Shown piece after piece: positions 23,701 to 29,700 of a stretch of 64,000 nt of DNA (position 1 is the first letter of the stretch; the number at the start of each line of letters is the position of its first letter). The stretch lies in the NCBI RefSeq assembly GCF_053078305.1, contig NZ_CP166879.1. The stretch is one strand, 5' to 3'. Position numbers: made by a program.

Positions 23701-26700
23701 CAGCGACCAGCGACCAGCGACCAGCGACCAGCGACCAGCGACCAGCGACCAGCGACCAGCGACCAGCGACCAGCGACCAGCGACCAGCGACCAGCGACCA
23801 GCGACCAGCGACCAGCGACCAGCGACCAGCGACCAGCGACCAGCGACCAGCGACCAGCGACCAGCGACCAGCGACCAGCGACCAGCGACCAGCGACCAGC
23901 GACCAGCGACCAGCGACCAGCGACCAGCGACCAGCGACCAGCGACCAGCGACCAGCGACCAGCGACCAGCGACCAGCGACCAGCGACCAGCGACCAGCGA
24001 CCAGCGACCAGCGACCAGCGACCAGCGACCAGCGACCAGCGACCAGCGACCAGCGACCAGCGACCAGCGACCAGCGACCAGCGACCAGCGACCAGCGACC
24101 AGCGACCAGCGACCAGCGACCAGCGACCGTAAATCAAGAAAGTCTGTAAAATCTGTTGAACCAGACATTGCCGACCGGGCTAACAGCTGGCTCAAATCTT
24201 ATGGACTTGATTACAAACTGGAGCAGGCACCACTTAACAACGAGATCGATAACGCACTGGATGCTTATTTTTCGAAAAATGGCGGCGCAGGCGGTAATCG
24301 TCCCGACGTAAAACTCCTTGTTCAGGACAAATACGGCAAGCAGTATCCCGTTCTCATCGAGTATAAAGGCTACAAGGACAGGCTTATCAGACTTGGCAGC
24401 AACGGTATTATTGAGAACAAAGATGCCAGAAAAGAATGGAATTTTAAAAATATTAATGGATACGCGGTGAATGGCGCAGTCCATTATGCCAACGCACTTC
24501 TTCAGTTCACCAATTACCCTGATATTATTGCTATTGGTATGACCGGCTGGCGCGATGATGATACAGGCGAACTGCATCATGAAATCGGCGTGTGGTACGT
24601 ATCAAAGAATAATTTAGGAGCCGGGCAGAAGGTTGGTGAATTCACCGACTTATCATTCCTTGCTGACAAAAATGTTGATGGATTTCTCAACAAGATAAAG
24701 CTGCTTAATCTTCCTCCCGAAGAACTGGAAAAAATCAAGGCCAGCAAAGAGGAAGAGATAGACACGCGACTTTCCCGTCTGAATAACGATATTTACCAGA
24801 ATGAAAAGGGGCTTGGTGAAAGCGATCGTGTTTACCTTGTTGTGGCTACCGTTATTGCAACGTTGGGGATTCCGGGAAAGTTAGCACCGCTGGATAAAAA
24901 AGAACTGACCTCTTCAACGGAGGAGGACTTGCGTGATGGTGATATTATTTTCAGGAAAATAAGGAATTTTTTAAGGCTGAAAGCTGTTCCTGAAACAAAA
25001 AGAGAAATGATTTTGCGCTCGTTGCAAAATACGCTGTGGACTGAAAACATTAACAAACCAGTCAACGGTGAAAGCCAGTTAAAGCGCGTGTTTGTTAAAG
25101 TTGTTGATGATCTTGGGGAGTATTACAAAATCGGACTGACCACCGATTTTACGGGCAAACTGTTTAATGAGATGTATCGCTGGCTTGGATTTACGCAGGA
25201 CAAACTCAATGACGTCGTTCTGACACCACCTTATGTTGCCACATTGCTGGCACGACTCGCCAGAGTAAACAAAGATTCCTATGTGTGGGATTTTGCTACA
25301 GGTTCTGCGGGATTGCTTGTGGCTGCAATGAATGAAATGCTCATTGACGCCAGAGAAAATATTCACTCACCGAATGAACTACAACTTAAGGAAGCGCAAA
25401 TCAAGGCTGAACAGCTTCTTGGCCTTGAGGTGTTATCCAGTATTTATATGCTGGCCATCCTGAATATGATTTTGATGGGGGATGGTAGCTCGAATATCCT
25501 CAATAAAGACTCGCTAGCCGATTTTGACGGCAAGTATGGATTTGGGAAAACAGGAGAAAAATTCCCTGCGGACGCATTTATTCTCAATCCTCCGTATTCA
25601 GCTAAAGGTAACGGCATGATTTTCGTGCAGAAGGCGCTGTCGATGATGGATAAAGGCTATGCTGCAGTGATTATCCAGAGTTCAGCCGGCACAGGAAAGG
25701 CTACGGAGTACAACAAAAAAATACTCAAGGAAAATACCTTGCTGGCAAGCATCAAAATGCCTGCGGATCTGTTTATTGGTAAATCAAGCGTTCAGACGTA
25801 CATTTACGTTTTTCAGGTAAAAATTCCGCATAACGCGAAACAGGCTGTTAAGTTTATCGACTTTTCCAATGACGGCTATGCTCGCTCTAATCGCAAAAAG
25901 GCAAGAAACAATCTTGTTGATGCCGATCGTGCAAAAGAGCGTTATCAGGAGGTTGTGGATCTGGTTCACTTCGGGAAAGGTTGCCTTAATATCTTTACGG
26001 AGGATGAATATTTTGAGGGAACAATCGATCCTGATAGTGGTGAGGACTGGAATCAGACTAGGCCAGTAGATACCAGACCGACACTGGAGGATTTTAAAAA
26101 GACGGTTGGCGACTATCTTGCGTGGGAGGTGTCAAAACTTCTTCAGGGGCGTGATGCGTCAGAAAAAAAGCAGTAAACTCCCGTCTTGCAGAGCTTGAGC
26201 GGGAGTTTATTAAATCTGGTGGTAAATGGGAAGAATACACAATCGAAAGATTGTTCAGTATTCAGACACCTAAAAAGAAATTTAATGCCAATAAATTAAC
26301 ATTTAATGGCAACTATCCTTATGTTGCCAGAGGAAGTAACAATAACGGCATAAAAGGATATATAGATGAAGATGAATTATATCTCAACCCGGGGAATACA
26401 ATTAGCTTTGGTCAGGATACTGCGACTATGTTCTATCAGGAAAACGCATATTTCACAGGTGATAAAATAAAGATTTTTTCTCTCAGGCATGGAGAGTTAA
26501 ATTCGCGAATTGCTTTTTTTCTTATATCAGCAATGAAAAAATCTTTTTCAACGTTTAGTTGGGGGAGTAGCTCTTTTAATGAGAATGTTCTCAATAAGGT
26601 AAAGATAAATATACCTACGTTTAATAATGTTCCTGCATATAATTATATGGTAAAGTATATAGAAGAGCTGGAAGCGGCCCATATAGAAGAGCTGGAAGCG

Positions 26701-29700
26701 GCCCATATAGAAGAGCTGGAAGCATACCTGATAGCTGCTGGGCTGAGTGATTACCAACTAACGGAAAAAGATTATCTTATCCTGGAACATTTTAAAAATA
26801 TTGAATTTTCAGGCTTTCCTGTTACTGAGTTATTCTCAGTGTGCAATACAGGAAACATATTGTCTAGAGACATCATAGAAAATAGTGGGGATGTTCCTTA
26901 TCTTTGTGCTAGCCGTGAGAATAACTCTGTTAGTTCTTATATCGCCTATGATAACTCACTCTTGGAAAAAGGGAACTGTATTTTTATTGGTGGTAAGACA
27001 TTCGTTGTAACTTATCAGGAGCGAGACTTTTTTTCAAACGACAGTCATAATTTGCGACTCTATGTTAACAATGAGGATGGAAGGACAAAGTTTGCTTATT
27101 TGGGCATTATTTCATGTATTTATAGATCTATTTCACATAAATATTCATGGGGGGATAGTGTTAGTAATAGAAAAATTAAGAACGATGTTGTTTGGTTGCC
27201 AGTAAAAAATAAGTCACCTGACTTTTGTTATATAAATGACCTTATTTCAGTTGTTCATAAGCTTGTCATTAAAGATGTTGTCCAGTACGCAGAACGCAAA
27301 ATGAACGCATACAGGCAAGCTATAACAAGTCGCGGTTATGATGATTCTGGTGTCAGTTAAAAAACATTTTACAATCGTAAAAATCCTCATATCATGATAA
27401 GAATGGTTACATTGCCACGCTGCTTAACCCGCCGATGCGCGGGTTTTTTGTATCCGGAATCCTGTTAGTTATACGGAAAGTACACAGAAAGGAAGGTGCG
27501 ACCGCAATTAATAACAAAATCTTAAAAATCGCATATGGCACTATTAGTTTTCTAAATATTGTATATTTTGAGTATTGTAGGATATCCCCTGTAACGAAGT
27601 TTGCGTAACAGCATTTTGCTCTACGAGTTTGCCAGCCTCCCCCAGTGGCTGGCTTTTTTTGTATCCGTTCAACAGGAATGTTACATACCTCACAATTAAG
27701 TCAGTTGAAGGTTGTCTGCCCGGATGAGAATTTGTTAGAAAATTTCTGCATGGTGAATCCCCCTGAGCGGCGGGGCATATCAGCGTCACAGGTGTTTCTG
27801 TTTTACCTCTATCCTTTCTGTGCGGGTTCAGGTGCTGATACTGAACTCACCGGGAGGCACCCGGCACCATGCAGTATACAGAGATTAGGCATATACCAGG
27901 GCCCCTCATAGCAGGGGCCTTTTTACATGCAAAAAAAAGCCGCCCCGGGAAGAGCGGTTGGCAAGAAGAAAAGCAATATGAACAATTAATTAACGCTGCG
28001 AATAATACCTTACAGTAATCACCCTGCGCAACTGTGAGGAGTGTATTTCTTTTTTGCGGGTGGTTGTCTTTTTCCCTTGTGTTTCGGGACTTCCGTTCAC
28101 TCCTTATCTTATTCAGTACATTATCCCGGCCGGGAGGATTCATGGCATTTAAACACTATGACGTGGTCAGGGCGGCGTCGCCGTCAGACCTTGCGGAAAA
28201 ACTGACTCAAAAACTGAAGGAAGGGTGGCAGCCTTATGGTAGTGCCCTGATTTCGACAGCTGGTTATGGTGCGGAGTTTATCCAGCCTGTTGTGAGTGAC
28301 AGGGATATCTCATCACCTGCGGAGCCAGGCAGTCACCCGACCGTTTCAACGAAGCCTGCAGCCGAACCAGAATATTACTATGTGATCGCGCTTGCTGGTC
28401 AGTCCAATGGTATGTCATACGGTGAGGGGCTGCCATTACCGGATACATTCGACAGCCCTGATCCACGAATTAAACAGTTAGCGCGCCGCAGTACGGTGAC
28501 ACCGGGAGGTGCTGCTTGTACCTATAACGATATTATCCCGGCAGATCACTGTCTCCATGATGTGGAGGATATGACAGGGCTTAATCATCCCAAAGCGGAT
28601 TTATCGAAAGGTCAGTACGGCTGTGTGGGACAGGGGCTGCATATCGCCAAAAAGCTTCTGCCATTTATACCGGCGAATGCGGGCATTCTTCTTGTTCCGT
28701 GCTGCCGTGGTGGTTCAGCTTTCACCACCGGAACTGATGGCACATACAGTGACACTACTGGCGCCTCAGAGAGTTCCACCCGCTGGGGGGTGGACAAGCC
28801 GCTGTATAAGGACCTCATTGGTCGTACAAAAGCCGCGCTGGCGAAGAATCCGAAAAATGTGCTGCTTGCCGTTGTGTGGATGCAGGGGGAGTTTGATTTC
28901 AGCGGCACGCCAGCGAATCACACGGCTCAGTTTGGCGCACTGGTGGATAAATACCGTGCGGACCTTGCAGATATGGTGGGACAGTGTGTTGGTGGTTCTG
29001 CTGACGGTGTTCCCTGGATTTGTGGAGACACAACATATTTCTGGAAGCAGAAGAACGAAACGGCGTACCAGACGGTGTACGGTAGTTACAAAAACAAAAC
29101 GGAAAAGAATATCCATTTCGTGCCGTTCATGACCGATGAGAACGGGGTGAATGTGCCGACGAACAAACCGGAAGAAGACCCGGATATTCCGGGTATCGGG
29201 TATTACGGTTCAAAATGGCGAACGGACAGAAGCACCTGGACATCTCAGGACAGGGCCAGTCATTTCAGTTCATGGGCTCGCCGTGGGATTATTTCCGACC
29301 GTCTGGCAACGGCGATTCTGAGCTGCGCGGGTAAGTCTTCTGCGTTTGTTAATGGTACTGCCGGGGTGGTTGTTCCAGACAGACCGGTTACCACCTCAGA
29401 GTCTGTAATTTTTTACGATGCCAAAAAAGCTTCAGACAATCAGCTGAAACCTTATGGCTGGGATGGTATGGATGGCAGACGCACACTGGTTGATGACAGC
29501 GGCAATAAAGCTCTGCGAATTGAGAAAAATAACAGCGCGAAATCCTGGTCAATGTACTGTGATATTGCTGCAGACAAGGCAAAACTGTTACTGGAAAAAG
29601 GCGGGGAAATTGCTGTCCGGTTTAAAATCCCCGAAAACGTCAATCTTGAAACAACCAGAAACAAGTATGCCTTTGGTTTGTACTGGCGAATAGCGGAATG

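Follow-up and report, generated by a model that had tools for sequence, protein, structure and literature searches.

Organization of the locus

We have analyzed a 64,000 nucleotide stretch of contig NZ_CP166879.1 (NCBI RefSeq assembly GCF_053078305.1), referred to here as the window, which carries a restriction-modification (R-M) system composed of a restriction-methylase gene (RM) and a specificity gene (S) with a 24-bp tandem repeat in the middle of S. The pair occupies a lambdoid prophage's late region next to the gene of the Q antiterminator, and the elements follow one another as Q, hok, a tract of heptamer repeats, RM and S (window about 22296-28034; also in the related loci L005 and L009). 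The features of the locus are listed in Table 1. A preliminary description of this DNA, made from the sequence, had pointed to the 24-bp repeat as a possible switch of the distance between the two half-sites recognised by the enzyme, and had placed the system among the Type I enzymes.

The system is a predicted BcgI-like Type IIB system, composed of a putative nuclease-methylase fusion and an S subunit with two target recognition domains (TRDs). The RM protein matches the PADLOC family REase_MTase_IIG over residues 5-672 of 681 (E 4.8e-234), and a second REase_MTase_IIG model of 637 positions at 7.8e-45, while MTase_I reaches only 5.2e-23. Its translation shows the motifs PD...EYK, DFATGSAG and NPPY, and Pfam finds N6_Mtase in addition to a weak VRR_NUC match (E 0.0014, residues 24-86). 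S matches Specificity_II over residues 20-364 (E 5e-19; model of 341 positions), compared with 8.6e-8 for Specificity_I. The NCBIfam model for hsdM (TIGR00497) gives RM 36 bits, below its curated cutoff of 242.75, and no HsdR gene was found beside the pair in any of the genomic contexts examined. RM and S are the only genes common to all of these contexts; the flanking genes differ, as E. coli has Q/hok and an esterase, tRNAs or stx, Pasteurella has mukF/mukE, and the other contexts have unrelated genes. Membership of Type I was therefore rejected, as there is no HsdR, hsdM remains under its cutoff, the best PADLOC matches are to Type II families and RM has a nuclease-like N-terminal domain of its own; on this point the preliminary description was wrong. 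Sequence searches of the PDB with S and RM returned zero matches and NCBIfam gave nothing for S, so that the classification rests on PADLOC, Pfam and fold comparison. Public annotations of relatives include "BcgI alpha chain-like" for the RM homologue in the record of phage PhiR12_3, "type II restriction endonuclease subunit R" and "BgcI subunit beta". Type IIB enzymes are defined by a bipartite site which is cut on both sides and by a stoichiometry of 2RM:1S (PMC3874165, PMC3592470). The only characterised relative that we found is Hpy99XXII of Helicobacter pylori, which recognises TCA N6 TRG (PMC3936762). With BcgI and BsaXI the system shares the fused nuclease-methyltransferase, the two-TRD S subunit, the PADLOC Type II families and an S fold like that of BsaXI S. 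It differs from them in that S apparently has no start codon of its own and would be reached by a -1 frameshift, and in its prophage-borne position at the site of stx beside a giant heptamer tract.

The architecture of S places the repeat in the first of the two helices which space the DNA-recognition domains. Numbered from 26170, S contains two Pfam Methylase_S domains (PF01420) at residues 19-176 and 216-345. An AlphaFold2 model, calculated from a 50-sequence alignment with a mean predicted local distance difference test score of 88.4, runs from a short helix (residues 2-15) through a beta-rich TRD1, a 34-residue helix (157-190, here CR1) and TRD2 to a 35-residue helix (352-386, here CR2). 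When this model was compared with the PDB by Foldseek it matched 1ydx (E 1.3e-16), 1yf2 (1.4e-11) and BsaXI S (8w0p_C, 9.4e-10); the HsdS structures 2y7c and 7bst were matched as well, and the S subunits of EcoKI and EcoR124I were among the matches. The TRD1-CR1-TRD2-CR2 layout is common to the S subunits of Type I enzymes and those of Type IIB. The repeat falls between the two Methylase_S domains and inside the central helix of the model; domain positions and fold matches together thus locate it in CR1, and support the earlier placement of the repeat in a central helix between two TRDs.

Table 1. Features of the RM-S locus. Positions are those of the window unless a related locus is named.
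Feature	Position	Strand	Evidence
ATG with Shine-Dalgarno-like AAGGA 7 nt upstream, then (GACCAGC)120 tract	23276..24128	+	Tandem Repeats Finder, open reading frame (ORF) list, frame analysis
RM gene body: N-terminal PD-(D/E)xK-like nuclease and gamma-class N6-adenine methyltransferase, BcgI-A-like	24131..26176	+	Translation, PADLOC, Pfam
Slippery heptamer A_AAA_AAG, RM frame, one codon before RM stop	26164..26170	+	Sequence, junction comparisons
S coding frame, predicted frameshift point to TAA	26170..27360	+	Translation, Pfam PF01420 x2, PADLOC Specificity_II, model
Hairpin just 3' of slippery site, core AAACUCCCG / CGGGAGUUU	26172..26211	+	RNA folding
TRD1	~26224-26697	+	Methylase_S domain
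Central helix CR1 (residues 157-190), joins TRD1 to TRD2 and holds repeat	26638..26739	+	AlphaFold2 model
Three 24-bp / 8-codon units	26659-26682, 26683-26706, 26707-26730	+	Tandem Repeats Finder, sequence, translation, lag-24 scan
TRD2	~26815-27204	+	Methylase_S domain
C-terminal partner helix CR2 (residues 352-386)	27223-27327	+	AlphaFold2 model
Terminator-like GC hairpin then T run, 66 nt past S stop	27426..27445	+	Consensus scan, pattern match only
GGACTCGC octamer tract in related loci	L005 5111-5334, L008 5111-5158, L009 5111-5142, L010 5135-5278, L012 5087-5214, L028, L038

Copy number of the 24-bp repeat

Tandem Repeats Finder detects a period-24 array of 2.8 copies at 26657-26723, with 100% matches and zero indels. 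In the raw sequence atagaagagctggaagcggcccat is present twice and is followed by a third unit, atagaagagctggaagcatacctg, whose match to the preceding units holds to position 26723; a lag scan finds 43 consecutive identical positions at lag 24 in the repeat, which is beyond chance. The S-frame translation of the repeat is IEELEAAH IEELEAAH IEELEAYL, corresponding to residues 164-187 of S. Since the unit is eight codons long, a change in copy number leaves the frame intact, and alleles with one to four units all keep it. The coordinates, sequence, translation and in-frame property of the repeat given in the preliminary description were all correct. A role of the 24-bp repeat as an ON/OFF frameshift switch was considered and rejected, as 24 is divisible by 3.

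The copy number of the repeat changes faster than point substitutions accumulate. Two, three or four units are found in 12 close loci, on three TRD backgrounds. The E. coli loci L003 and L004 have 0 substitutions over 3,230 bp, and their sole difference is a 24-bp indel; the window and L002 are separated by 12 substitutions, one 1-bp indel and one 24-bp indel. Alleles which combine TRD1 of type A with TRD2 of type Y differ by just 1-3 substitutions in about 3.3 kb, yet have 2, 3 or 4 units. A further series for the window's own allele was drawn from a collection of 5.8 billion proteins, requiring zero other amino-acid differences. Outside the repeat, proteins identical to the window allele were found with one unit (P0001, 11 contigs), two units (P0122, 36 contigs), three units as in the window (P0121, 37 contigs) and four units (P0128, 2 contigs). 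Invariance of the copy number across homologues, which by the preliminary description would speak against a switch, is accordingly not what is seen; values from one to four occur on identical protein backgrounds. The series of two, three and four units was seen again on at least four further TRD1/TRD2 combinations, Salmonella alleles included. Three units are also present in a more distant E. coli homologue with 85% DNA identity, where they have been homogenised to a different sequence, IEELEASH. Errors of assembly were rejected as the source of the variation, since the array is only 72 bp long and the states from one to four occur in many independent complete genomes and contigs.

It was also observed that the domains on either side of the conserved repeat are reassorted: a TRD1 of type A, B, C or another type is combined in different ways with a TRD2 of type X, Y or another type (window 26224-26637 and 26764-27222; L001-L012, P0001-P0144). 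This reassortment indicates domain shuffling by way of recombination within CR1.

The variation extends beyond the close relatives of the window. In a survey of the best 120 homologues of S, in which CR1 was measured between the conserved flanking motifs, 8-residue tandem repeats were found at the same position of CR1 with units that are lineage-specific: SQLEAFRL in Pasteurella, ELQAERLQ in Haemophilus, AELEARRS in Neisseria and LEAERIAD in Microcystis, besides IAELEAQR, IRELEEAR, ISELEAER and others. Vibrio is also among the distant homologues in which CR1 changes in 8-residue steps. Across the family the length of CR1 between its conserved flanks is almost only 5+8n residues. With the stricter pattern (102 proteins) lengths of 5, 13, 21 and 29 residues were found in 2, 69, 26 and 4 proteins, plus one mis-parse; with a looser pattern the corresponding counts were 2, 73, 32 and 7, with P0101 as the one exception. 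P0101 is the sole family member found with a 4-residue step (AELE) in CR1, which resembles the size of the TAEL unit of EcoR124. The distribution is peaked, with two units in about 65-70% of the family, three units in about 25-28%, and one or four units rare. Among proteins with at least three units, identical full units are present in 31 of 39; the remainder are register shifts, except for one diverged case (P0103). In Pasteurella and in Microcystis the units are perfect as DNA, too (68 nt and 53 nt, respectively). No length variation of CR2 was seen in the 50-sequence alignment, where it is free of gaps, and a compensating change in the length of the C-terminal helix was rejected on this ground. 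As the units are mostly identical within lineages and different between them, the repeat has expanded repeatedly and recently in many lineages, in 8-residue steps and in CR1 only.

Copy number and the recognised gap

A precedent for such a repeat exists in the Type IC enzymes, whose first helix contains a 12-bp repeat at which unequal crossing-over makes a difference of 1 bp in the gap (PMC3874165, PMC9159934, PMC7383803). EcoR124I, with two copies of TAEL, recognises GAA N6 RTCG, and EcoR124II, with three copies, recognises GAA N7 RTCG; how Type I enzymes accommodate the change in gap length was described in a review as "not clear" (PMC3874165). As in EcoR124I/II and EcoDXXI, the repeat described here keeps the reading frame and is located in the first connecting helix of a protein with the layout TRD1-CR1-TRD2-CR2, and, as in EcoR124I/II, natural variants are known which have the same TRDs and are set apart by copy number alone, while the partner helix remains constant. 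The differences are a unit of 24 bp and 8 residues ((I)EELEAAH) instead of 12 bp and 4 residues (TAEL), natural states from one to four instead of two and three, a Type IIB host enzyme without HsdR, and the family-wide spread.

The interpretation which we favor, with a probability of about one half, is that the 24-bp repeat, a hypermutable in-frame length module in CR1, would reset the gap recognised by the enzyme. CR1 would become longer or shorter when units of 24 bp are gained or lost by slipped-strand mispairing or by unequal crossing-over, each unit corresponding to about 12 Å or two-and-a-bit helical turns; TRD2 would be shifted and rotated relative to TRD1, and the enzyme would then read its two half-sites as before but at another spacing, with more or fewer unspecified base pairs between them. 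Scaling from EcoR124 or from helix geometry gives a soft figure of about 2-3 bp per 8-residue unit, which we do not rely on since the same geometry mispredicts EcoR124. On this scale the extreme states, with one and with four units, may have little activity or none. The likely outcome would be a fast and reversible switching of the specificity of restriction and methylation with the reading frame kept.

If copy number does set the gap, an enzyme of a lambdoid prophage would step through several specificities by simple slippage. Switching would then alter the range of incoming phages and plasmids that the enzyme cuts, and the set of sites that it methylates in the host; some of the relatives lie immediately upstream of stx2. 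The "molecular ruler" of EcoR124 would no longer be confined to one family of plasmid-borne Type IC enzymes but would be extended to a Type IIB family that is widespread, and the four states on an identical protein would provide a natural four-point calibration of coiled-coil length against DNA spacing.

Several considerations weigh against a change of gap. The effect of copy number on specificity is here entirely a matter of inference, and searches of the literature for Type IIB methylomes and spacer length, and for BcgI with Stx and prophages, gave nothing on this system. In BsaXI, deletions of up to 32 residues in CR1 reduced activity and left the N5 spacer unchanged (PMC9159934), although this is an indirect test as the deletions were made in a TRD1-CR1 half-subunit and not in a two-TRD S. 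The step of 8 residues (about 12 Å) is twice that of EcoR124, and four such states may exceed what a 2RM:1S complex tolerates. Several relatives are moreover decaying or off, with IS1 in S, TRD2 out of frame, or RM out of frame with its ATG, and relaxed selection could thus explain some of the variation in copy number.

The same BsaXI spacer result fits the view that the repeat is a mutational hotspot, at which slippage would generate a neutral or slightly deleterious polymorphism while specificity stays constant. A helix that tolerates additional turns would be needed, and a free C-terminal helix together with a flexible attachment of the TRDs would absorb them. The expanded alleles nearly always have undiverged units, as young and transient states would; such units are equally expected of short-lived, mildly deleterious products of slippage, and the quantisation in 8 residues could stem from the mechanism of slippage rather than from selection. 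We regard this as clearly less probable than the gap-length interpretation. A like change in Type IC enzymes does alter specificity (PMC3874165), three-unit alleles are common (about 25-28% of the family, and 37 contigs of the window's allele), and P0103, in which three units have diverged, is evidence that such a state can last. It is rather improbable that the repeat instead acts as a switch of activity, whereby a single helix length would give a productive 2RM:1S complex and the other copy numbers would reversibly attenuate or silence the enzyme without a frameshift. The productive form would probably be the modal one with two units or, alternatively, the three-unit form, whose CR1 (34 residues) equals CR2 (35 residues) in the model. 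The strong peak of the family at two units with one or four rare, the reduced nuclease activity of the BsaXI deletions and the presence of ON/OFF repeat tracts at the locus would all agree with such a switch; the abundance of both the two-unit and the three-unit forms on the same background is, however, hard to square with only one of them being active, and a dedicated ON/OFF tract, the heptamer, already lies upstream. Less probable still is that variation in unit number would be an incidental by-product of domain shuffling, with the conserved DNA of CR1 as the point of crossover in homologous recombination and unequal exchange altering the number of units. A TRD1 of type A, B or C does occur in several combinations with a TRD2 of type X or Y, all sharing one CR1 sequence, and hybrid specificities made by recombination in conserved regions are well documented for Type I systems (PMC3874165). 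L003 and L004, on the other hand, differ by the indel alone with no sign of exchanged flanks, and the full series from one to four units on one invariant background means that intragenic slippage is enough. Shuffling is in any case also compatible with a change of gap and does not exclude it.

Predicted frameshifting between RM and S

RM ends ...GAA AAA AAG CAG TAA, with its stop at 26174-26176, and S is in the -1 frame relative to RM, open from 26155 to the TAA at 27358-27360. No ATG, GTG or TTG was found in the S frame before 26251, a position which is already inside the conserved start of TRD1. The hairpin which follows the slippery site in the window has a predicted stability of -20.3 kcal/mol (z = -5.08), and 0 of 200 shuffled sequences were as stable. 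The lack of a start codon for S, together with a conserved slippery heptamer and hairpin, suggests that S may be made as an RM-S fusion through -1 programmed frameshifting.

Comparison of the junctions, which were also located at L003 4541-4600, L006 4534-4582, L013-L016 and L017-L038, is in agreement with this prediction. All seven junctions folded have a hairpin in the same position, with z values between -1.9 and -5.2; the stems found there are of two unrelated sequences and 2 compensatory pairs were seen within one class, although the evidence from covariation is modest since the stem arms also encode conserved residues. The slippery sequence is A_AAA_AAG in four E. coli-type alleles and G_GGA_AAG or G_GGA_AAA in the B allele, in Vibrio anguillarum, Pasteurella multocida and Microcystis aeruginosa, and in six further viral contigs among which S identity falls to 36%. 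One viral locus, L037, was left out of this comparison as the script found no RM ORF. The slippery heptamer is located 0-4 codons before the RM stop across the examined junctions, and a Shine-Dalgarno-like element is found 3-13 nt upstream of it in 11 of 14. From the slip site onwards the S-frame peptide is conserved, reading GKV.APL.EKL..VEWGE or AVNSRLAELEREF. L035 is a natural control, with a TAATG stop-start overlap and no slippery heptamer. Natural single-ORF fusions of RM and S, found when phmmer was run with the predicted trans-frame junction, align continuously across it (for example P0145, P0148 and P0169, the latter of 983 residues).

The -1 sites of the dnaX type and of the lambda G/GT type are composed of an X_XXY_YYZ heptamer and a 3' hairpin, often with a Shine-Dalgarno-like element upstream. 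The junction described here has the same components, with A_AAA_AAG or G_GGA_AAG in the upstream frame; it differs in that it would join a restriction-methylase to a specificity domain, and in being predicted from sequence. Free RM made alongside the fusion, as predicted here, would agree with BcgI's stoichiometry of 2RM:1S. In the window the predicted fusion of RM body and S would have about 1,077 residues, more if the tail encoded by the heptamer tract is translated, and would read ...SEKK|AVNSR... at the junction. An engineered M-S fusion of EcoKI is functional and needs additional free M (PMC3510504), and the homologues of H. pylori have been held to be inactive for want of a start codon (PMC3936762). 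The literature searched contained no report of an R-M system that uses programmed frameshifting. On the practical side, genome pipelines mis-start or split these S genes, and the annotated starts of S are inconsistent (TTG, ATT, CTG, ATC and GTG).

Neighboring repeat tracts and prophage setting

The preliminary description had treated the 24-bp repeat as a second layer of variability on top of an upstream heptamer tract, and this tract does exist: Tandem Repeats Finder reports GACCAGC in 120.6 copies at 23285-24128. In the window the tract is in frame with RM and would add about 280 residues of DQRPATS repeats to it. Among relatives it ranges from 3 to 120 copies, with the reservation that some of the short viral contigs may end inside the tract, and the ATG next to the Shine-Dalgarno-like element is in frame with RM in 4 of 13 loci (the window and 3 of the 12 close loci). 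The tract thus looks like an ON/OFF tract. Among the strains with complete genomes, JNEC-KY173 (B/X, 3 units of the 24-bp repeat) has RM in frame with this ATG, while in 2018-166 (A/Y, 3 units) and OkiPb01714 (A/Y, 4 units) TRD2 is in frame but RM is in frame with no upstream ATG. A literature search for the GACCAGC heptamer gave nothing relevant. Over the tract, RefSeq records of relatives have a minus-strand protein whose length varies and which is named either "YXWGXW repeat-containing protein" or "hypothetical protein"; as the tract is open in all frames, this annotation is most likely an artefact.

A second tract, absent from the window, is found in the sister alleles with TRD2 of type Y, where 4-28 copies of the octamer GGACTCGC, read as GLADSRTR, directly follow the 24-bp repeat. 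With 6 or 18 octamers TRD2 stays in the frame of S, and with 4, 16 or 28 it does not, so that changes in this tract would toggle S between a two-TRD form and a form with TRD1 only. Neither the heptamer nor the octamer has a length divisible by three, and both can therefore shift the frame. In phase-variable hsdS genes (NgoAV, and the Type I loci of Atack et al. 2019, PMC7383803) S is likewise altered by tracts in or near the coiled coil between the TRDs; the 24-bp repeat differs from these in never shifting the frame, as expected of a length module.

Taken together, these features could describe a hypervariable prophage module, in which an S subunit made by frameshifting would set the 2RM:1S ratio, the heptamer tract would turn the system ON and OFF, the 24-bp repeat would be a ruler with four states and the octamer tract a toggle between two TRDs and one, with the ruler present throughout the family from enterobacteria to cyanobacteria. 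This combined scheme is tentative, and we hold it to be possible without considering it probable; as part of it, the 8-residue ruler would be a previously unrecognised general property of the S family.

In some E. coli strains the pair is found directly upstream of tRNA-Ile/Arg/Arg and stx2AB, while no tRNAs or stx were found at that position in the window. In strain 2015C-3121 an IS1 has inserted directly behind RM, close to the 5' end of the region that encodes S (L011 4660-5357), and in JNEC-KY171 an IS200 is located downstream of S (L002 6151-6609). Such insertions show that some copies of the RM-S system are decaying. Regarding the terminator-like element downstream of S, the consensus scan of the whole region gave 5 hits against 5.7 expected from shuffled sequences. 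Two imperfect 12-bp arrays were observed elsewhere in the window, AAATCGATCATG in 4.4 copies at 33481-33533 and AAAACTGCGCAA in 3.1 copies at 33574-33610, in or near an ORF at 33345-34151.

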